From a virus (Duplodnaviria > Caudoviricetes), in the IMG/VR virus record IMGVR_UViG_3300001525_000584, positions 128,001-192,000 of that record: 64,000 bases of DNA; one strand, given 5' to 3'. Each line of letters opens with the position of its first letter. Within the stretch, counting starts at the first letter, position 1. Below, piece after piece: positions 2,657 to 24,001 of the stretch. The translations under genes were made by a program, and so were the position numbers. The notes under the pieces were generated by a model. The model was not told where the DNA came from and searched no databases. It saw only the letters and a program-made list of their open reading frames with translations.

Positions 2657-3382
2657 ATGTATTTACTTAAAATTTTTGATGAAGTTGATTATGCTAAGGA
2701 TTTTGTAAACGGTCATATAAGGGTGATGCCTGTATCTACTTATAAAAAAGATACTGTAGATAAAGCCCGTAGAGACGTCAAAGAGAGCACTATAACACCT
2801 GCCGTTATAAAACCCGATTTAAATGTGCCTATACAGCCTCTCGATTATCCTGGGGCCGCCATGTGTTTGGGGATTAAAGCTCTGCAAGAAGATTTGGAGG
2901 CATCTGGTAATAAATTATCTGCGGATGATCTATTGATCGCCGCGCTACCTTTAGATCCATATGTTCTATGTATGTCCTCCATAGGGCAGGAGCAAAATGA
3001 AGCGGCAGCTTTTCAGGCCAATTTAACCGATATATTTTCTAATGAACAAAAAGGTTCTTTCGGTGTATTAGTGCATGAAGAAGACCTGGTGAATCACATT
3101 AGATGCGCACAGAAGAATCATCCGGTACTTCGAGATATGCTTAGCGGGTCGATTTCTTATATAGAAGAAGATATGCAACCTAATAATGTATTTGAGAAGC
3201 CTCAGAGTTTTGCATATGAACATGAATATAGATTCGTGTTTCCACACATCATTAAAGGCTCTGAAGAGAAACCTGATTATTTTATTGATATAGAGCCTCT
3301 GCCTGGCATAGTCTTTTCTATAGTAAATAATGATTTGCATATAATACATAATACTTTTGAGAGGAAACCCAAAAAATGCTAA
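2657..3382 (+). CDS. Hypothetical protein, DUF2971-like
   Basis: Strong SD; C-terminal FEKPQSFAYEHEYRF motif. Confidence 0.4.
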   Translation: MYLLKIFDEVDYAKDFVNGHIRVMPVSTYKKDTVDKARRDVKESTITPAVIKPDLNVPIQPLDYPGAAMCLGIKALQEDLEASGNKLSADDLLIAALPLDPYVLCMSSIGQEQNEAAAFQANLTDIFSNEQKGSFGVLVHEEDLVNHIRCAQKNHPVLRDMLSGSISYIEEDMQPNNVFEKPQSFAYEHEYRFVFPHIIKGSEEKPDYFIDIEPLPGIVFSIVNNDLHIIHNTFERKPKKC

Positions 3383-3512
3383 TACCAACCCTAATAGCTT
3401 TTTCTATATTCACCTGCTTTAATATTTTTCTTTTTCTCTTAACAACGGGCAAAATCTAATTCTCTAAAAATGTATTTTTTTATAGTAAAGGAAAAGAAGG
3501 AGAATAATTTTT

Positions 3513-3866
3513 ATGGAAGCAATTCAGCAAGAAATTATTTGGCATATTTGTGAACATGATGGACTACCGTCTATTGATAAAAAAGTTCTTGTTTGTTGTG
3601 TGAATGAAAAGGGCAAGCCTTTTGTTCGCGTCGGAAGAAGAAATAAGTATGGATGGCAAATCGCAGGAACTATAGAAGGAGTGTATGCATGGGCAGATTT
3701 ACCTTCTCCTCCACCAACTTCGTATGAAGCTGCCACGTGTCGTAAATGTCGATATAGAAAATATAATAGAGATGCCTATGAATATTTCTGCGGTATCACT
3801 TCTGAAAATATTAAGGACTGGCAAGAAGCTTTTGTCTGTGAACATTTTAAAGATGTACGAGGATAA
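3513..3866 (+). CDS. DUF551-like phage protein with C-terminal Cys cluster
   Basis: W..LP..VL ... AWADLPSPP, then CRKC...C...CEHF. Confidence 0.55.
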   Translation: MEAIQQEIIWHICEHDGLPSIDKKVLVCCVNEKGKPFVRVGRRNKYGWQIAGTIEGVYAWADLPSPPPTSYEAATCRKCRYRKYNRDAYEYFCGITSENIKDWQEAFVCEHFKDVRG

Positions 3867-3885
3867 TATATAGGAGGATATAATA

Positions 3886-4341
3886 ATGAGACTTTGGCAT
3901 TATAAACTTTTTCCCTATTTACCTGATTTACAGTTCAAAGGTCAGCTAAGAGAAGTATATGCTATTATGCATAACTGGAGGGATATGGGAACAACAAATT
4001 CTCTTATTATTAATCCTATTATGCGTTTTGATAAATCTGAATTAACCTCTTATTTTCTTCTCTATAAAAAAGAGTATGAGAAAAGATATAATAAGAAAAT
4101 TAAAACTTCTATTAAAAATGAATTTTTAGATTTTCCAGAAAATAAACCCGGAACTGATTATTATACTATAACAAAAGAACCCTTTACTGGTGTTCATAAT
4201 AAAGACTATTTAAGAGTCTGCATGGCTAATCTATATGAGAAACATTTTTGTGCAGAAGGAAAAACAGTTATCTCTGATGAAGACTGGAAAAGATTAACAG
4301 ATGGATATAAAGATATAACAGGAGAAGAATATAGATTATGA
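3886..4341 (+). CDS. Pyrimidine-dimer DNA glycosylase / endonuclease V-like protein
   Basis: N-terminal MRLWHYKLFPYLPDLQFKGQLRE signature. Confidence 0.7.
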   Translation: MRLWHYKLFPYLPDLQFKGQLREVYAIMHNWRDMGTTNSLIINPIMRFDKSELTSYFLLYKKEYEKRYNKKIKTSIKNEFLDFPENKPGTDYYTITKEPFTGVHNKDYLRVCMANLYEKHFCAEGKTVISDEDWKRLTDGYKDITGEEYRL

Positions 4342-4895
4342 AACAAAGAGATGCGCATGATATTATTCGGGACTGGCAAACCTTATACTGTGCAGGGAGT
4401 AAAATGCCAAAAGAGTTTAGGGAACAGGCTAGTATGGGCTTTTTTAATGTATATTTAAGTAACTTACCTGAAGCACGGAGACTTAGATATACAGAGAAGT
4501 CTATTTATAGAGTGATTATTCCCGATGAAGGACCTCTTTTATATTTTGATGATTTGTATTATTCTTTTTCCGCCGATGTGTCAGGAGTCACACATTTCGC
4601 TACAAAGGATAAGAATACTCGTGAAGATATTTTCTTAATAGTTGCAAGGCCTAAAGAAGCTCTTGATTTTAATAAAATATGTGCTGATCTTTTTTGGGAC
4701 GCACCTACAAAGTTTTCCTGCGAAAATGAAGTGGTGTCTAAACTAAGCCCTGATAATATAATGGCTATTTGGTATCTGAAACATGCCGAAGATATTCAGG
4801 ACTATGCACAAAAGGGTACTTCTATAGATCCTGCAGACGCTGGCCTCGATATAAAGGCACTTGTGAATAAATATAAGTTACCTATAGAACTTTAA
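4338..4895 (+). CDS. Putative ADP-ribosyltransferase-fold protein (R-S-E type)
   Basis: IYR, YYSFS and ENEVV motifs in canonical order. Confidence 0.45.
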   Translation: MKQRDAHDIIRDWQTLYCAGSKMPKEFREQASMGFFNVYLSNLPEARRLRYTEKSIYRVIIPDEGPLLYFDDLYYSFSADVSGVTHFATKDKNTREDIFLIVARPKEALDFNKICADLFWDAPTKFSCENEVVSKLSPDNIMAIWYLKHAEDIQDYAQKGTSIDPADAGLDIKALVNKYKLPIEL

Positions 4896-16908: not shown

Positions 16909-17448
16909 ATGAGCAAAGATGATTTTAATATAACTTTTCCCGAAACAGAAAAAACAGGACTTTTACTAAATCCCGCAAATATAAAAATACATAGATTATA
17001 TTTTACTCAGATGTGTCAGCTATTAGGTATTAAAGTTCTTTATAGAGCGCCTATAGATCCTTCAAAGCAGTATAATGGTTATGGTGAATTAGATACGCAT
17101 TATTTGCCTGCAACTTCTGTTAACTGTATATGGGACGAACATCCATCTGAAAAGACTATGAAAAAATTAGGTTGGAACACAGAATTATCAGATACAACAG
17201 CCGTGATACATGTGCCTTATGATTTAAAAGGTTTACAGGCAGGTTGTTTATTTATAATCCCATCAGGGTTAGATAATTCTATAGGTAGAGTTTTTAAAGT
17301 TATAAGAATGACAAATATAGCTATTTACCCTGCTTCTATAGCTTGTGAATTAGGACCTATGTTTAAAAATACAGATGAAAAATCTACTGTACATGATTTT
17401 AAACATACCAACTTTAATTTATTAGAAGGAGAAGAAGATGATATATAA
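16909..17448 (+). CDS. Probable virion structural protein (head completion/neck-like)
   Basis: In a GCTAAATT operon; beta-rich; TMKKLGWN..IHVPYDL; function tentative. Confidence 0.4.
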   Translation: MSKDDFNITFPETEKTGLLLNPANIKIHRLYFTQMCQLLGIKVLYRAPIDPSKQYNGYGELDTHYLPATSVNCIWDEHPSEKTMKKLGWNTELSDTTAVIHVPYDLKGLQAGCLFIIPSGLDNSIGRVFKVIRMTNIAIYPASIACELGPMFKNTDEKSTVHDFKHTNFNLLEGEEDDI

Positions 17449-18142
17449 GTTTTTGTTGGCTGCTTTAGAAAATCCTACTGATATAGAAGAAACTTATGCG
17501 CTGGATGAAGCCTATGACGGTAAATGGCCGAAGATCAGTTTTAAAAATATTGTGCGCTTATATGATTATTTATGTGCTAATGGCTATGCCATGGAGTTGC
17601 ATTCTTCACATAGTTCTAAAGTAGATACTACTACAGTACCTGATAGTACTGTTAAAGATGTGATTCAGGTAAATAAAAACGTGGATAAAAAAGAAACTGT
17701 AGAGAATGCTTTTTTCGCGCGTTTATCACCTGAAGAGGTGCAGCGTCGTAGTACTTTGTCCGCAGAAGAGCTCGCTTTAGATAATTACAGGCTTCTATAT
17801 CCTTATTCTACAGAAAAAGAATTAGAGAAGGGTGAAAATTATAGGCCCTCTGAAAGCACTTTTTATTATTTATCCTTTACAGGCAAGCAGGCTCAAATTT
17901 ATTTTCATAATATCCTGTTTCAGAAACTAGATGATATTAAACAGTTAATAAAAAAATTTTATTTAGAAGAATTGCACGAAAAGCCTGAATTAGTAGATGA
18001 ATATATGAATTTATGGACGCCTGCGACGGTTGCTCACGGCTATAAGTATGAAAAAGAGTATCAGGCAAATATACATTATATGATATTAAAATTTAATCTT
18101 AGTGATCCCGAAAATGTTCCTCACGGAGCACGCAACCGATAA
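17438..18142 (+). CDS. Hypothetical protein
   Basis: Coupled ORF; acidic leader with LDEA. Confidence 0.65.
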   Translation: MIYKFLLAALENPTDIEETYALDEAYDGKWPKISFKNIVRLYDYLCANGYAMELHSSHSSKVDTTTVPDSTVKDVIQVNKNVDKKETVENAFFARLSPEEVQRRSTLSAEELALDNYRLLYPYSTEKELEKGENYRPSESTFYYLSFTGKQAQIYFHNILFQKLDDIKQLIKKFYLEELHEKPELVDEYMNLWTPATVAHGYKYEKEYQANIHYMILKFNLSDPENVPHGARNR

Positions 18143-18172
18143 ATTTTTACATTCTTTATATTAAGGGCTTTT

Positions 18173-18181
18173 TGCTAAATT
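18173..18181 (+). promoter_or_regulatory. GCTAAATT late-promoter-like motif
   Basis: TGCTAAATT upstream of the holin-like genes. Confidence 0.65.
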
Positions 18182-18259
18182 TATCAATCGAATGTGAGTA
18201 GAGATATATCGAAAGGACAACCAGCTCGCAAAGGAAAAATTCAATAAGGAGACAAATGG

Positions 18260-18718
18260 ATGACAGATGAATTTTTACGCTGGTTGTTACCTATTGTAGC
18301 TGCTGCCGTAATTAGTGCTGTTGTTCCCTGGATCGTAAATAGTACGATTAAAAAAAGTTTAAAGAATCAGGAACTATTAAAGCAATTAGAAGCAAAAAAA
18401 GAAGAAGAAAAAAGAACAGCACAGTTAGAAAAACTTCTAAATGAAAAATTAGATCCCATTAAAGCAGAAGTAAACATCATCAAAGAAGAAGTGACAAAAA
18501 ACAAAGATGGAACTGTAACGCTTTTAAGAGAACGCATGGAACAGTCTCATGATCGTTTTGTCAGAAAAAAATGTATCTCCGCAAGTGAATTAGCCAACTG
18601 GCGACATTTGTATAATACATATGAATGGCTGGGCGGAAACCATTTTAGAGAATACGTCGATGAGTGGAAAACAGATATAGAAACTTTACCTCGCGACGTA
18701 GATAATAAAAAAGAATAA
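18260..18718 (+). CDS. Holin-associated membrane protein
   Basis: N-terminal TM helix, coiled coil, LY..Y..LGGN motif. Confidence 0.6.
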   Translation: MTDEFLRWLLPIVAAAVISAVVPWIVNSTIKKSLKNQELLKQLEAKKEEEKRTAQLEKLLNEKLDPIKAEVNIIKEEVTKNKDGTVTLLRERMEQSHDRFVRKKCISASELANWRHLYNTYEWLGGNHFREYVDEWKTDIETLPRDVDNKKE

Positions 18719-18744
18719 TTTCGAAAGGAGTCAGATTCTAATTT

Positions 18745-19086
18745 ATGAATTTTAGTCAAATTTGTGATCTAGTTATTGCGATTTGCGGCATTATCCCAAC
18801 AGTTGTTGCTGTAGTGATGTTAATTAGAAACATTATTAAAGAAAAGAACTGGAAACTAGTAGAAAAAATTATTTTATCTGCTATGTCTGCCGCAGAAGAA
18901 TATGCAAAAGAACATCCAGAGATGTCTAGTGAAGAAAAACTAGATTTTGCTTTAGCTGCTGTTACGGGCGGTGCTCATGCAGCAGGCATCACTATAGACG
19001 AAGAGCTATTAAAGAAAATCGTAGCGTATATAGAACAGATGTGTTCTTGGTCCAAAACTGTTAACGTAGAGCCGGAGAGCCAATAA
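18745..19086 (+). CDS. Phage holin, LL-H-like
   Basis: One N-terminal TM helix; AMSAAEE...EKLDFA...IE pattern. Confidence 0.6.
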   Translation: MNFSQICDLVIAICGIIPTVVAVVMLIRNIIKEKNWKLVEKIILSAMSAAEEYAKEHPEMSSEEKLDFALAAVTGGAHAAGITIDEELLKKIVAYIEQMCSWSKTVNVEPESQ

Positions 19087-19831
19087 ATGAAGATTTTAAT
19101 TGGAACTAATAAAGCTCTAAAAACTCCTTCAGGCAAGGTATTATCCATGGGGGGGGGGCGGTGAAACACCTCAGGGTTATCAGCTGATCGTAACCGAAGA
19201 ATTTGAGGGTGGAACTTTTTCCATTATCTATGCTGATGGTACTGCGGCTACAGTACCTGCAGGTACTTACCAAAACGTGGTTACCATCACAGATCACACT
19301 CCCAACAACTCTAATGAAAAGTGGAACATTAATGGCAGCATGCCTAAACTGCCTTTTACATTAACTGCTAATAGTACTGCATATATCTATAGTTCTTGTT
19401 TAACTGGAGATATGCTTATAACTCTTGCTGATGGTTCTCAAAAGCGTGTCGATCAACTGGCTTTAACTGATAAAGTTCTTTCTTGGAACCCTGATACGAT
19501 GCAGCTTGAAGCAGATGAGATCACCTATACTGACAGTGCAGAAAACAAAAAGCACACTGAGTATGACGTTTGGACATTTATTGATGGAACTGTTATTAAA
19601 ACGGTACATCGGCACAGACTGTATAATGTAGAACGCCAGGCCATGATCTATATGGATGAGTGGCAAATTGGTGAACATGCCCTTAATATCGATGGTGAAT
19701 ATGTAGAACTAATCACGCATGAAAATATTAAAGAAGTGATACAACACTATACTCTATTCACAGGGAACCAGAATTATTTCGTTAATGGACTGTTATCAGG
19801 AAACAGGTACACAAAGGAGATACACCTATAA
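19087..19831 (+). CDS. Tag cassette gene 1: N-terminal tag, beta domain, Hint domain; out of frame at G10
   Basis: MKILIGTNKALKTPSGKVLSMGGG then stop at 19164; G9 joins it to the open frame GETPQGY...CLTGDMLITLADG...NYFVNGLLSGN. Confidence 0.75.
19149..19158 (+). repeat. Poly-G tract (G10), candidate phase-variation switch
   Basis: atGGGGGGGGGGcgg. Confidence 0.85.
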
Positions 19832-20166
19832 TGGCTTATACATTAACCTTCACGGATGGCTTCGACTGTCGAATTAATGGGACGAGTGTTAGTAGTCCTT
19901 ATACTCTTAAAGATGATGACTATATACGTGTGTATTCTAGTTTTGCTAAGTTTACTGTTAATGGCACTGTGTATAACTACGCCGTTACAAATGAGATCAC
20001 TATTATTAATGAAGATATCATAATAGATAAAAGTGGTTTTGTTCCTTCTACATCAGAGACGGGTATTTATACGCGCATTCGTTTCGGCATTAAAGAAACA
20101 CTAAAGGTTTTATCAACAGGAGAAAAGCCCCTGAAAACGACCTCTGGAAAACTTCTGGTAAATTGA
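19831..20166 (+). CDS. Tag cassette gene 2 (C-terminal tag)
   Basis: Ends LKVLSTGEKPLKTTSGKLLVN; body resembles gene 3. Confidence 0.75.
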   Translation: MAYTLTFTDGFDCRINGTSVSSPYTLKDDDYIRVYSSFAKFTVNGTVYNYAVTNEITIINEDIIIDKSGFVPSTSETGIYTRIRFGIKETLKVLSTGEKPLKTTSGKLLVN

Positions 20167-20186
20167 TTGGAAACTTATTGAAAAGT

Positions 20187-20268
20187 CTCTCCTCCGTATA
20201 TCGGGGGGGGGACATAATTTTAAAAATAAACATTTTTCTCCCGATATTCAAAAATATTAAGAGGAGAG
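20187..20268 (+). promoter_or_regulatory. Intergenic RNA hairpin containing a G9 tract and pairing with GAGGAG
   Basis: ctctcctc pairs with gaggagag; atatcG9a pairs with tttttctcccgatat using five G-U pairs. Confidence 0.55.
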
Positions 20269-20284
20269 TGAAAACCAAATTTTT

Positions 20285-20665
20285 ATGAAACTTTTGGCAA
20301 CAAAGGAAAAAATTTTAAAAACAAATACGGGAAAAATTCTGTATAGAAAAGATTCTTCTAATAAGCAACATACTTTAACTTTTTCAGGAATTGGTACTGT
20401 AACAGTAAATGGAAAAACTGTTACTAGTGGCTATTTACTAGAAGCAGGAGATGTTATAGTTGCAACACCTCTTTTGGCAAGTGGAAAACCTGATAAAATA
20501 GGACCGAATAGTGTTTCAGTTAACGGAACATGGTATGACTGTCCTAATACAGTTTCTGTAAATGCAGGAGATGTAGAATTAATTTTATTAGCCGCTACTG
20601 CAGATCCTAATGATGGCGGCGGAGAATCATTAACAATAAACTATACGGGCTTTATGCCTGGCTAA
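20285..20665 (+). CDS. Tag cassette gene 3 (N-terminal tag)
   Basis: Starts MKLLATKEKILKTNTGKILY. Confidence 0.75.
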   Translation: MKLLATKEKILKTNTGKILYRKDSSNKQHTLTFSGIGTVTVNGKTVTSGYLLEAGDVIVATPLLASGKPDKIGPNSVSVNGTWYDCPNTVSVNAGDVELILLAATADPNDGGGESLTINYTGFMPG

Positions 20666-20679
20666 TGGAGATATTATAA

Positions 20680-21440
20680 ATGCCACCTATAACATCAACC
20701 CTGCGGGGGGGGAGTTTCATTTTTGTGCCCTGAATAATTTTTATAATAGTACATATTATGGGAGCCCCACTGCTGATTCTATAATATATTTATGTGTTTA
20801 TAATAATGAATGGACACAGTCCCTTAATTTCGTAAGCAACGGGGTGCAGTATGATGCTATTCATATTATTGCAAGCACAAGCACCCCTAGCAACCGCAAA
20901 ATGTGGTATGTAGCTAACGGGGTTGAAACTTTAGTGCATCATAACAATTTATGGGCGTTAGAGGCTTATAAAACAATAACTTATGAAACGCAAAATGTAC
21001 GCGAAGGCATAAGCGGCTTGCTGGACGTCACATCAAGTTACTGCAGTGGTGGCTTTCCTGCTCCGGCCGGCACTTATAAAGTTCTCGCACCTTTAGCTTC
21101 TGTAGGAGTTTTACATGCTTTTGTGTTTTCAAATTTCGAAAGTCACGGAGACGTCTTTAATTCTATAGACTGGAGCCTAGGTACAACAGCATCGCCCCAA
21201 GCTACTGTGCGTTACACAGGGCCTTCAGTAAACGATACTTATACTCATGTTACAGTATATGAAGAGGGTTGGCTCGATCCTAGATATCAAATTATAACGA
21301 TACCACAGGGTGTATACATGTCGCCGAACACCGAAGACTTCTTCAGTGAACGACTAATCCCTTTTCAACGTAACTTTATTGCCTTATCTTCGAATAACAA
21401 AATTTTAAAAACAAACTCAGGAAAAATTATAATTAAATGA
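20680..21440 (+). CDS. Tag cassette gene 4 (C-terminal tag); out of frame at G8
   Basis: SD GGAG and ATG 20680, MPPITSTLRGG; G9 joins it to the open frame EFHFCAL...VQYDAI...NKILKTNSGKIIIK. Confidence 0.75.
20705..20712 (+). repeat. Poly-G tract (G8), candidate phase-variation switch
   Basis: ctgcGGGGGGGGagt. Confidence 0.85.
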
Positions 21441-21784
21441 TAAAGTTATCTAAAAATCATTCAGGATTGCAATTCTTTGCGGGCGCTATTGGATACCCTA
21501 TACATATCACGCTTAACGGTGCTGCGGAGTCTTTTTATTGTGTTGCAGCCTCTTGGTTGGATAATTCTAAGGACATATCTCCGGATTATCCACTGCCATA
21601 TACCTGCACCATTAATAAGGTTATATGGTCAGATAATGCTATTCTCGTTTATAATGGTACGGATGTTTTACCCTCAGATAATATTATAGATGATGGTACT
21701 TATACTACACGCGCAGATACAAAAGTATTAAAACAGGGAAACAAGATCCTTCAAAGTAAAATTGGAAAACTTCTTATAAAGTAA
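21437..21784 (+). CDS. Tag cassette gene 5 (LQFFA leader, C-terminal tag)
   Basis: MIKLSKNHSGLQFFA...KVLKQGNKILQSKIGKLLIK. Confidence 0.8.
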   Translation: MIKLSKNHSGLQFFAGAIGYPIHITLNGAAESFYCVAASWLDNSKDISPDYPLPYTCTINKVIWSDNAILVYNGTDVLPSDNIIDDGTYTTRADTKVLKQGNKILQSKIGKLLIK

Positions 21785-21796
21785 AAAGGAGAATAT

Positions 21797-22150
21797 ATGC
21801 CAGAAAATATAATCACACATGCTCCTCCTATAGCTATTACTTTTATAATATATGTAAATGGCTCTAAAGTATCTTTTGGAGCTACAGGTACCTCGAGCGA
21901 TCGGACCTGGCAGACGAACTGGGATTATTTTGGTGACTACTGGGCTCCTTCACAAGTACCTTATACTTTAACCGATACGAATGTTGTCTGGGAAAATAAT
22001 TCTATATTAGTTTATAATGACATAGATGTGTTACCTACTGATTCTATGATTCATGAAGGTAACTATACAACACGGAAAATAGACCAAAAAATATTAACAA
22101 CAAACAACAAAATTCTAAAAGATAAATCAGGAAAAACACTTATTATATAA
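21797..22150 (+). CDS. Tag cassette gene 6 (C-terminal tag)
   Basis: Ends KILTTNNKILKDKSGKTLII. Confidence 0.8.
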   Translation: MPENIITHAPPIAITFIIYVNGSKVSFGATGTSSDRTWQTNWDYFGDYWAPSQVPYTLTDTNVVWENNSILVYNDIDVLPTDSMIHEGNYTTRKIDQKILTTNNKILKDKSGKTLII

Positions 22151-22168
22151 AAAAGAAAAGAGGGATTC

Positions 22169-23137
22169 ATGATAAGATTATCTAAAAAATATAGTGGTTT
22201 ACAGTTCTTTGCTCCTGAAGATCACTATATTAATGTAAATGGCTCTTCAGTGCAAATTTATTTAAGCACCTCTTATAATGCAACGTGGCTAGATAACGCA
22301 AACTATTTAACTAATCCTTCTCTTTATAAAATAGTAGATGATAAAGTCATGTGGTATAATAGTGTTATTCTTCAGTATAAAGGTGTAGACGTTTCTCCAA
22401 CAGATTTTATTCACGACTATGAAGATTATACAACCAGAGCTACTGATGAAACATGGGTTTTGAAGTCAAGTGGCATGACCGCTCCGGATAACGCAATTGA
22501 TACAGCAATAAATTTTAAAAATGCTGCCGGAGATGCTTTTACTCGGATTAATATTTATGCGGAGGGCAAAGGGCTTCATATCTCTTATTATAATGGAACA
22601 GAGGAAACCTTTGCATGCTCGGGAGGAGACGGCGTTACAGGTTCTAATGCAACTATAACATTTTTAACATCCCCTACGGGCGATTTATTAGAGTGGTTGC
22701 AGGCAAATGGAACAAAACAACAGGAAACGTTAACACCAGTGTTGAGTGCAGGAACTTATAAGTGGGCCGACATTTTGGGCAATATGCCTGCTAGTACTGA
22801 TTTTTTTGATATAAAAATTAATTTTACCAGCAATAATAACAACTATAGCGCATTAGGTGTTTACTCTGACGGTATCAAATTGCCTGTGGTTAAGCTTCGC
22901 TATGTCGCATCTGATGATTCTACTACGGCTTATAATGAAGGAGACTGGGTAGTCGATTCTTATCAGACCCTTATCATAGTAGAAGATCAGCAAGTATCAC
23001 AAGCGTTTTACAACTGGGCGATTACGGGTGGAAACTTAGTTAAACAAACAACTTCAAGTGCTCCAAAACTTATGTCTTTTGGTGGAAAATATTTCAAAAC
23101 GAGTTCAGGAAAATATTTAGCACCACCACAGAACTAA
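22169..23137 (+). CDS. Tag cassette gene 7 (LQFFA leader, three domains, C-terminal tag)
   Basis: MIRLSKKYSGLQFFA...KLMSFGGKYFKTSSGKYL. Confidence 0.8.
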   Translation: MIRLSKKYSGLQFFAPEDHYINVNGSSVQIYLSTSYNATWLDNANYLTNPSLYKIVDDKVMWYNSVILQYKGVDVSPTDFIHDYEDYTTRATDETWVLKSSGMTAPDNAIDTAINFKNAAGDAFTRINIYAEGKGLHISYYNGTEETFACSGGDGVTGSNATITFLTSPTGDLLEWLQANGTKQQETLTPVLSAGTYKWADILGNMPASTDFFDIKINFTSNNNNYSALGVYSDGIKLPVVKLRYVASDDSTTAYNEGDWVVDSYQTLIIVEDQQVSQAFYNWAITGGNLVKQTTSSAPKLMSFGGKYFKTSSGKYLAPPQN

Positions 23138-23186
23138 TTTTCATATATAGAAAAAGAACATTAAATTTTTAAAATGGAGGCAAAAA

Positions 23187-23810
23187 GTGGCAGGTTATAA
23201 AACAACTGTTTACTGGGACGAAGGTATTGAAAAAATGTTTTGGCATGATGATAATGAATCCGCCTGGTTGGAGATAGCCCAAAGTGGTACTACAGTTTCT
23301 TATGGTGCAGGATTAGCTCTTAAACCCCAGTTTAAAGATGGTTATGAACTGTCCGAAGTACCCAGTGGTGTTGTTGCTTCTGCAGATGAAGGCATTTATT
23401 ATGCAACAAATTTATCTTCAGTTTCTTTTTCCTCCACATTAATCTCAGTGACTTATACCCTAGCCGCAGGTACATATAAATGGGTAGATAATCCTTATGT
23501 TACTATCGATGCTGATGAAAATATAAGTTTCATCTCTGCTGAACAAACTTTTTCCCGCTTATTGATACGTTCGGGCGCCCGATATAGCATTAAATACGAT
23601 TCAGAAGGGGCTTATCAGGAACCCCTTTCCTCCTGGTTTGATCCCCGATATCAAATTATCACCTTAGAATCTGATCAAACTGTTTCAGAAGAATTTTATA
23701 CCTGGGCCATCACTGGAAAACAACTCATACCTCAAACAACCCAAATAAAGCTTATATCTACAGGCAATAAATATTTTAAAACAAAGTCTGGAAAATATTT
23801 ATCTCTATAA
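23187..23810 (+). CDS. Tag cassette gene 8 (C-terminal tag)
   Basis: GTG after GGAGG; ends KLISTGNKYFKTKSGKYLSL. Confidence 0.8.
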   Translation: MAGYKTTVYWDEGIEKMFWHDDNESAWLEIAQSGTTVSYGAGLALKPQFKDGYELSEVPSGVVASADEGIYYATNLSSVSFSSTLISVTYTLAAGTYKWVDNPYVTIDADENISFISAEQTFSRLLIRSGARYSIKYDSEGAYQEPLSSWFDPRYQIITLESDQTVSEEFYTWAITGKQLIPQTTQIKLISTGNKYFKTKSGKYLSL

Positions 23811-23816
23811 CATAGC

Positions 23817-23906
23817 AAATTTGCTTTATAAACGCTTTTATATATTTACCCTACACAAATATACATATTTATTTTAATCGCGTTATAATGCGTTTTTACA
23901 TGCTTA
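23817..23906. repeat. Dispersed quasi-palindromic intergenic element, copy 1
   Basis: Shares tataacgcgattaaa (inverted), atttgc and catgctta at the same spacing as 63781-63868. Confidence 0.65.
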
Positions 23907-23920
23907 TAAAAACCCTTTTC

Positions 23921-23952
23921 AAAGCCTCTAAAATATAGAGGCTTTTCTTTTT
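23921..23952 (+). terminator. Intrinsic terminator
   Basis: aaagcctcta-aaata-tagaggcttt followed by a T run. Confidence 0.8.
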
Positions 23953-24001
23953 ATAAAAATGTATTTATATAGTAGTAAAAGCATGGAGGAAAAAATATAA
24001 A

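Follow-up and report, generated by a model that had tools for sequence, protein, structure and literature searches.

We analyzed a 64,000-nucleotide window, positions 128001-192000 of a single 217,629-bp contig (IMG/VR record IMGVR_UViG_3300001525_000584; 35.5% GC, phage-like throughout), and found that two genes of a cassette array within it, here called A and D, are each broken near the 5' end by a poly-G tract one base away from the length that keeps the gene in frame. ON and OFF alleles are visible between relatives of this phage in public assemblies. The locus has the sequence-level features of a contingency locus: a tract, its position, length polymorphism between near-identical genomes, and a product that depends on the frame. 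We propose, with a probability of about 0.7, that accessory genes of the cassette, which are probably virion-associated, are turned ON and OFF by slippage-prone contingency tracts. The genes, tracts, and hairpins of the window that are described below lie on the plus strand.

Gene A lies right after a holin gene. Its ATG at 19087 translates to MKILIGTNKALKTPSGKVLSMGGGR, in which a 20-residue tag (MKILIGTNKALKTPSGKVLS) runs into the tract, and the frame closes at a TGA at 19162-19164; this 5' piece (19087-19164) is the current OFF reading. The tract, G10 at 19149-19158, has its first G in a Met codon and is one G above the in-frame length of nine. With G9, the frame is open to 19831 and gives 247 amino acids (aa), taking in a stop-free downstream frame of 226 codons (19151-19831) that encodes a variable body and then a Hint domain. 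The 20 residues before G10 and the PQGY after it belong to one protein, because 15 syntenic homologs read through uninterrupted. In these 15 contigs, the gene right after the holin begins MKIL(I/V)G(T/A)(N/D)K(I/V)LKTSTGK(I/V)LSTG(A/T)Q(V/A)PQGY and continues unbroken over 263-267 aa; the start of the intact homologs is MKILIGTDKVLKTSTGKILSTGAQVPQGY.

Gene D is broken in the opposite direction. Its ATG at 20680 has a GGAG 9 nucleotides (nt) upstream and is followed by 17 codons that read through G8 (20705-20712) to a stop at 20731-20733, so that the current OFF reading (20680-20733) is MPPITSTLRGGSFIFVP and then the stop. This tract is one G below the in-frame length of nine. The downstream frame (20682-21440) has 252 stop-free codons and ends in a C-terminal tag, NNKILKTNSGKIIIK; with G9, the frame is open to 21440 and gives 253 aa. 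The tract-spanning peptides of the restored products are SMGGGGETPQGY for gene A and TLRGGEFHF for gene D. Re-reading the sequence and its open reading frames (ORFs) bore out the tract coordinates and both frame breaks of a first-pass annotation of this window, along with its proposal that G9 restores both genes (247 and 253 aa); a natural G9 form of gene D is found in contig L025, described next.

Related contigs were reached by cluster look-ups of neighboring proteins; they come from other samples and show the majority allele only. One of them, L025 (7,011 bp, SRR19415682), carries the holin, cassette genes, and ligase in the same order. Window positions 20362-22464 are 99.5% identical to L025 over 2,104 aligned columns, with nine substitutions and one indel. 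That single indel is the gene D tract, which is G9 in L025, with identical flanks and an intact 253-aa protein. A third tract, which is intergenic, also differs (G8 in L025 versus G9 here); it sits in a 120-nt element that is otherwise conserved. L025 has another body in its first cassette gene, which carries an in-frame C9 (KIL-CPPP-EAS) right after its N-terminal tag. This C9 shares its relative position, the tag-body junction, with the G10 of gene A.

The tracts are rare in this sequence. The window contains just three G or C runs of at least 6, namely G10 at 19149-19158, G9 at 20203-20211, and G8 at 20705-20712; the longest run elsewhere in it is 5. GGGGGGG has nine overlapping matches in the window against 1.2 expected, and none of 100 shuffles reached nine. 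The first-pass annotation had named these three as the only G runs of 8 or more noticed in the 64 kb, which holds for the window; in the whole genome, a fourth tract, G10 at genome positions 87292-87301, is the sole further long run. Genome-wide, four G or C runs of at least 8 were seen against ~0.39 expected (Poisson P of ~7e-4), and three of these four fall inside 1.6 kb. In contingency loci, a slippable homopolymer of ~7 or more lies early in an ORF or within a regulatory region, and such placement was found here: the tract covers codons 21-24 in gene A and codons 9-11 in gene D, and the other two tracts lie in an intergenic hairpin and at a ribosome-binding site elsewhere in the genome. 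The two ends of the genome overlap directly by 32 nt (positions 1-32 and the final 32), which suggests a circular or circularly permuted genome and short-read graph assembly.

The fourth tract lies between a DUF5662 gene and a 244-aa ORF and ends 5 nt before the ATG (positions 2293-2302 of L027), where it occupies the Shine-Dalgarno position. Its length is G10 here, G12 in L038 (from the same sample as L025), and G7 in L039-L041. At the same site, a more distant lineage (L033-L037) has a plain AAAGGAGG ribosome-binding site and no tract. Length variation was also found in a sister lineage, in a 184-aa gene ~6 kb upstream of the holin (L010-L016, about position 1334), where seven contigs from different gut samples have G5, G6, or G9; G5 is frameshifted and gives 130 aa, and G6 and G9 are in frame. 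The homolog of that gene in our phage (genome 122334-123188, a tandem-duplicated form) lacks the tract. Each tract with a comparator thus differs in length among close relatives whose flanks are nearly identical. The comparison of tract lengths in related genomes that the first-pass annotation had called for therefore gave differences for the gene D, intergenic, and fourth tracts alike. For the intragenic tracts, one length class gives the complete protein, the others truncate it, and the downstream frame is kept.

We examined the gene D family for the origin of its tract. A search of 1.8 billion representative proteins placed gene D with 12 related clusters. Ten of the 12 begin at residue 1 with MPP(I/V)T..(I/L).GG, and the other two have this motif after a 62-residue extension; Pro2, Pro3, Thr5, and Gly10 are invariant. 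Homologs include P0002 (54% identical, 100% coverage) and P0003, and the eight codons before G8 plus the EFHF after it correspond to PPVTYTLNGGEFHF in P0002. Gene D spells R-G-G-E as CGG GGG GG(G) GAG, whereas the homologs spell N-G-G-E or N-G-G-K as AAT GGT GGA GAA/AAG. In this genome, GGG makes up 6.5% of Gly codons, CGG 5.6% of Arg codons, and GAG 27% of Glu codons, and the rare-codon spelling of gene D has a chance of ~6e-5 under average codon use. At the gene A site, the closest homolog of the gene A body (P0004, 84% identical over its full length) has AAA GGGGG C GGT GAA (G5), and syntenic relatives have ACA GGA ACT or ACA GGG GCT (G4). On this codon-level comparison, the tracts are derived and made from rare codons, with distant homologs that are tract-free or have a shorter run (G5).

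The first-pass annotation listed the intergenic G9 among its three runs. This tract lies outside the genes, 37 nt past the gene B stop, and forms the 3' arm (20203-20211) of a terminator-like hairpin at 20185-20213, GTCTCTCCTCCG / CGGGGGGGGGAC, followed by ATAATTTT. The hairpin, GUCUCUCCUCCG-UAUAU-CGGGGGGGGGAC, starts 19 nt past the gene B stop and has 12 pairs (-21.8 kcal/mol, z of -5.7). The G8 allele of L025 folds at -17.7 kcal/mol. As G can pair with C or U, slippage leaves the stem able to form but shifts its strength, and tract length would thereby alter stem stability and probably tune read-through into genes C' to H. We consider the hairpin terminator-like, with an efficiency that could depend on the length of the tract; its U run (AUAAUUUU) is short, with four U only, and is set back 4 nt from the stem. 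A second hairpin at 20233-20269 pairs UUUUUCUCC with GAGGAGAG, and the fold of 20167-20284 reaches -35.7 kcal/mol (z of -4.6). The GAGGAGAG stretch of this second hairpin is strong and lies 15 nt upstream of the gene C' start codon. A promoter at the intergenic G9 was considered and rejected, as no sigma-70-like pair with a workable spacer was found.

Taken as a mechanism, these features would work as follows. During replication, the polymerase would slip on runs of 8 to 10 G and gain or drop one G. In genes A and D, where the tract falls within the first 25 codons, a length of 9 (or 6 or 12) would give the full protein. At the current lengths, gene A (G10) would end after 25 residues and gene D (G8) after 17, each one step from ON, and the near-identical phage from another sample would have gene D ON (G9). 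The intergenic G9, as an arm of the hairpin between B and C', would set read-through into C' to H by its length, and the fourth tract would replace the Shine-Dalgarno region of another gene. With tagged, shuffled modules, progeny would differ in the modules that they display, a form of bet-hedging. We infer within-population switching, the effect on termination, a virion location, and a role in host range from this arrangement.

Several points weigh against this interpretation. Gene D is carried by two genomes only, so its ON/OFF comparison is a single pair. Gene A has no direct alternative allele among the relatives, because its cassette body is found in just one other contig, which has G5 and a different N terminus. 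Length differences between assemblies could in principle include homopolymer consensus errors. The cassette proteins gave weak or no matches in Pfam and PHROG scans, with no Pfam family except a weak Hint match, and they have no clear structural match. Finally, both intragenic tracts are OFF in the same genome, which also fits gene loss.

Gene loss, or neutral hypermutability more generally, would make the tracts by-products at module recombination joints and the frameshifts merely inactivating. G10 does sit right on a homology breakpoint (19145-19153), at a joint where relatives have G4 (ACA GGG GCT) and the donor-type module has G5. The intergenic tract is also near a breakpoint, and relatives cope with two to three cassette genes rather than eight. 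The gene D tract, in contrast, is off any breakpoint and took at least four G-ward changes, which put the rarest codons at a conserved Gly-Gly. Decay is absent from the downstream frames, a natural ON allele exists in the L025 gene D, and a homopolymer recurs as C9 at the same tag-body junction in a different cassette. The rare-codon spelling in gene D and the homopolymer recurring after the tag together argue for selection, and we consider the neutral explanation unlikely. The ON allele and the intactness of the frames contradict plain pseudogene decay. The first-pass annotation had held that invariant lengths with decayed downstream frames would speak against switching; the opposite was found, with varying lengths and intact frames. 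The other refuting outcome that it named, a uniform G9, likewise disagrees with the lengths compared between assemblies.

Assembly miscalls would mean that the true lengths are G9 and G9 and that both genes are intact. Each tract is a single base off the length that keeps the frame, and runs of 8 to 10 identical bases are the most difficult positions on any platform. Such miscalls would, however, have to be opposite errors (+1 and -1) within 1.6 kb, in an assembly whose A7 or T7 runs lie well within long open frames in 36 of 93 cases and leave those frames unbroken, and in which ORFs of 2430 and 1432 aa are uninterrupted. The terminal overlap of 32 nt also suggests short-read graph assembly. 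Single-base errors would not account for the lengths seen in independent assemblies, G7, G10, and G12 at the fourth tract and G5, G6, and G9 in the sister lineage, which differ too much and too consistently. Miscalls thus seem quite improbable as the source of both frame breaks. Programmed recoding, by ribosomal frameshifting or transcriptional slippage, would instead produce full proteins from templates that carry G10 and G8. Both sites are slippery-like: in gene A, the run is directly followed by a rare CGG and then a stop (+1 at GGG CGG TGA), and gene D has an X XXY YYZ-type heptamer (-1 at G GGG GGA), but the two genes would require opposite shift directions. A frameshift-stimulating RNA structure downstream of the tracts was rejected, as the 100 nt following them fold no better than shuffles (z of +0.98 and +0.26). 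The out-of-frame length is not shared by relatives: the closest one is in frame at G9, and other homologs are in frame with no slippery site. We regard recoding as very unlikely, and low-level leakiness of genes A and D may occur.

Contingency switching of the two genes may be part of a larger design, which we put forward tentatively and with considerable doubt. Two frameshift switches, a variable-stem terminator, and a variable ribosome-binding site might together make up a multi-layer stochastic switchboard for combinatorial display of tagged virion modules in a gut-Bacillota jumbo phage. The homopolymer after the docking tag (G10 here, C9 in L025) might then be a recurrent, selected design of this module family.

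The genes around the tracts form an array of tagged modules. A K-ILKT-SGK-L tag occurs in eight genes, at the N terminus of A and C' and at the C terminus of B, D, E, F, G, and H, and all eight copies in the genome lie within window positions 19108-23766. It presumably resembles one repeat of an adenovirus-type fiber shaft. In relatives, the tag is internal to longer fusion proteins, between modules (L013 8134-8973, L021 8146-9258, and L026 5008-5391), so the genes of our phage appear to be split just past the tag. Annotations beside P0004 in contig L005 raised the idea that the tag is Pfam Mtd_N. We rejected it because no tag protein matches at E of 10 and because the Mtd_N genes of L005 bear a different motif.

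Upstream of the array, a holin gene of the Holin_LLH type (18745-19086; Pfam PF09682 at 5.7e-6, PHROG holin families) is the final conserved gene ahead of the variable cassette region, with DNA identity of ~89% to L013 and L026 and 96% to L025. Homology to syntenic relatives runs from at least 14562 (~88%) to 19145-19153, inside G10; for L021, L013, and L026, the DNA homology stops there, right at the tract. It returns weakly over the Hint domain and fully at ~23804, before a DNA ligase gene, leaving a variable region of 4.65 kb between the homology blocks. This region holds eight cassette genes here versus two to three in relatives. Gene B (19831-20166) has a start that overlaps the gene A stop and a C-terminal tag, EKPLKTTSGKLLVN; in relatives, the B-type module forms fusions with other modules. 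Gene C' (20285-20665) has an N-terminal tag, MKLLATKEKILKTNTGKIL, and is a shortened form of a 219-aa L025 gene. Genes E, F, G, and H (21437-23810) each have a C-terminal tag, and E and G have a ...SGLQFFA leader.

Two modules, ETWVL...LLxWLQANGTKQ and TYKWVD...AITGGNLVKQ, reappear in differing combinations. Compared with its L025 counterpart (positions 1279-1938, 219 aa), gene C' (126 aa) is missing an internal TYKWVD...AITGGNLVKQ module, which is also present in G and H. The shortening points to deletion or recombination between repeated modules.

Gene A has 162 homologs, with a strongly conserved C-terminal Hint domain and variable N-terminal bodies. The Pfam Hint match in gene A (2.2e-6) is under the Pfam curated cutoff (27.8 versus 29.7 bits). 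The Hint domain (19397-19831) is 65-83% identical across well over 100 gut-phage proteins with unrelated N-terminal bodies. It ends in ...NGLLSGNR(Y/H)TKE.HL, and a downstream nucleophile is absent, so the domain is probably self-cleaving rather than splicing. The contig from the European Nucleotide Archive that carries P0004 (L005) is a tail-fiber-rich related phage contig with 15 called genes (at 2388-2654, 2883-3161, 3193-4386, and others), which contain 12 in-frame TAG codons and all terminate in TAA or TGA; TAG seems to be read as a sense codon in this contig.

The structure of the gene D product was predicted with AF2, and the model has a predicted local distance difference test (pLDDT) score of 86. 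Foldseek found no match to this model in the PDB at E of 0.001 or better, and VIA-align gave weak SH3b-like matches alone (Z of 3.0-4.8 over 49-55 residues). Matches in BFVD were uncharacterized phage proteins alone, and a protein atlas gave no usable match. At the DNA level, blastn of window positions 17000-24000 against 50,697 phage records gave no match. IMG/VR scans with gene D, the ligase, gene A, and a Hint alignment gave no relatives or distant tract-free ones. JGI metagenome scans with gene D and the intergenic element gave no match, nor did the same pattern in viral contigs.

The neighborhoods of the homologs give some indication of what the switched genes may do. In the gene D family, P0003 is encoded right after a tape-measure gene, and P0002 comes last in a podovirus structural block. 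Mtd_N tail-fiber-like genes form the cluster in which the closest A-type protein is encoded. Genes E (21437-21481) and G (22169-22213) begin MI(K/R)LSK..SGLQFFA. The Firmicutes protease Prp trims at FF|A, and its substrates are L27 and, in staphylococcal phages, capsid, scaffold, and possibly tail proteins, those of the 80alpha capsid and scaffold included (PMC5744158). The resemblance of the E and G leader to this site is a hint that the host belongs to the Bacillota and that these proteins are incorporated into large assemblies. Relatives of the Hint family are found in metagenome-assembled genomes of Eubacteriales, Clostridium, and Bacilli, the genes have strong GGAG-type ribosome-binding sites, and the holin is of the LLH type. 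Based on these comparisons, the switched genes are most likely dispensable virion or host-surface-binding accessories, and the host is probably a member of the Bacillota. Of the earlier proposal of poly-G control over accessory virion modules in a Bacillota phage, the slippage-prone ON/OFF tracts in two cassette genes with G9 as ON are well supported, and the virion role and the host are circumstantial.

Experimental proof of phase-variable receptor-binding genes in phages comes mainly from Campylobacter phages, and contingency loci of coliphages have only recently been proposed. The locus described here carries the idea of a poly-G switch over to a jumbo gut phage that is uncultured and probably infects Bacillota. 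If this is confirmed, a single phage genome sequence would under-describe the phenotypes of its population, and predictions of gut-phage host range would have to weigh tract states. Gene callers split or truncate such genes, and the database has just 179-aa (D) and 163-aa (A) fragments of these two. The locus is an easy target for amplicon sequencing in gut samples. Should the tentative switchboard hold true as well, poly-G bet-hedging would be a general gut-phage strategy and not a Campylobacter peculiarity.

Several known systems invite comparison. Programmed frameshifting in phage tail genes, of the lambda G/GT type, uses a conserved slippery site and yields a fixed product ratio. Both there and here, a slippery run near a stop joins two frames, but the run length at our locus varies between relatives and an in-frame allele exists. 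Among phage tropism switches, Mu uses Gin to invert its G segment, and Bordetella phage BPP-1 uses a diversity-generating retroelement with mutagenic retrohoming. The likely purpose is the same, progeny that differ in host-recognition parts, but this locus employs neither an invertase nor a reverse transcriptase.

Surface genes of Campylobacter, Haemophilus, and Neisseria carry poly-G/C tracts of 8 to 12, either in the 5' portion of the reading frame or within regulatory regions, and length modulo 3 sets ON or OFF. Our tracts are like these bacterial contingency loci in size, in their 5' or regulatory position, and in varying between close strains, but they are carried by a virus. Bacterial contingency loci have been reviewed (PMC11868660, PMC8355987). 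For T2, T4, and other phages, contingency loci have been described in which repeats lead to reversible slippage frameshifts, read as bet-hedging (Gomez, Barrick, and Waters, bioRxiv 10.1101/2025.10.21.683753). That study considered repeats at least 6 bases long, for example in agt and rIIA, and found them under-represented in tail-fiber-type genes (10.1101/2025.10.21.683753). The runs here, unlike those of T2 and T4, are long G runs in a genome of 35% GC and are concentrated in one accessory cassette array.

The closest parallel may be found in phages of Campylobacter. Sorensen et al. (2021, Cell Rep 35:109214) reportedly found that G runs in phage genes give ON/OFF host-recognition variants, with several tracts per genome. 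Two papers (PMC12823448, PMC10877375) cite that study, whose subject is receptor-binding-protein genes with hypermutable polyG tracts in Campylobacter Fletchervirus phages. Our phage shares with Fletchervirus the G runs in phage genes and the presence of several tracts in one genome. It differs in being a 218-kb uncultured gut phage, probably with a Bacillota host, and is known here from sequence alone. Its switched proteins (tag plus Hint; MPPxT) match no named family but Hint in the Pfam and PHROG scans, and no relationship to the Campylobacter proteins emerged from these scans, which include no direct comparison to them. The placement of the tracts also sets it apart from Fletchervirus, as one lies at a module junction right after the shared tag, one in a terminator-like hairpin, and one at a ribosome-binding site.

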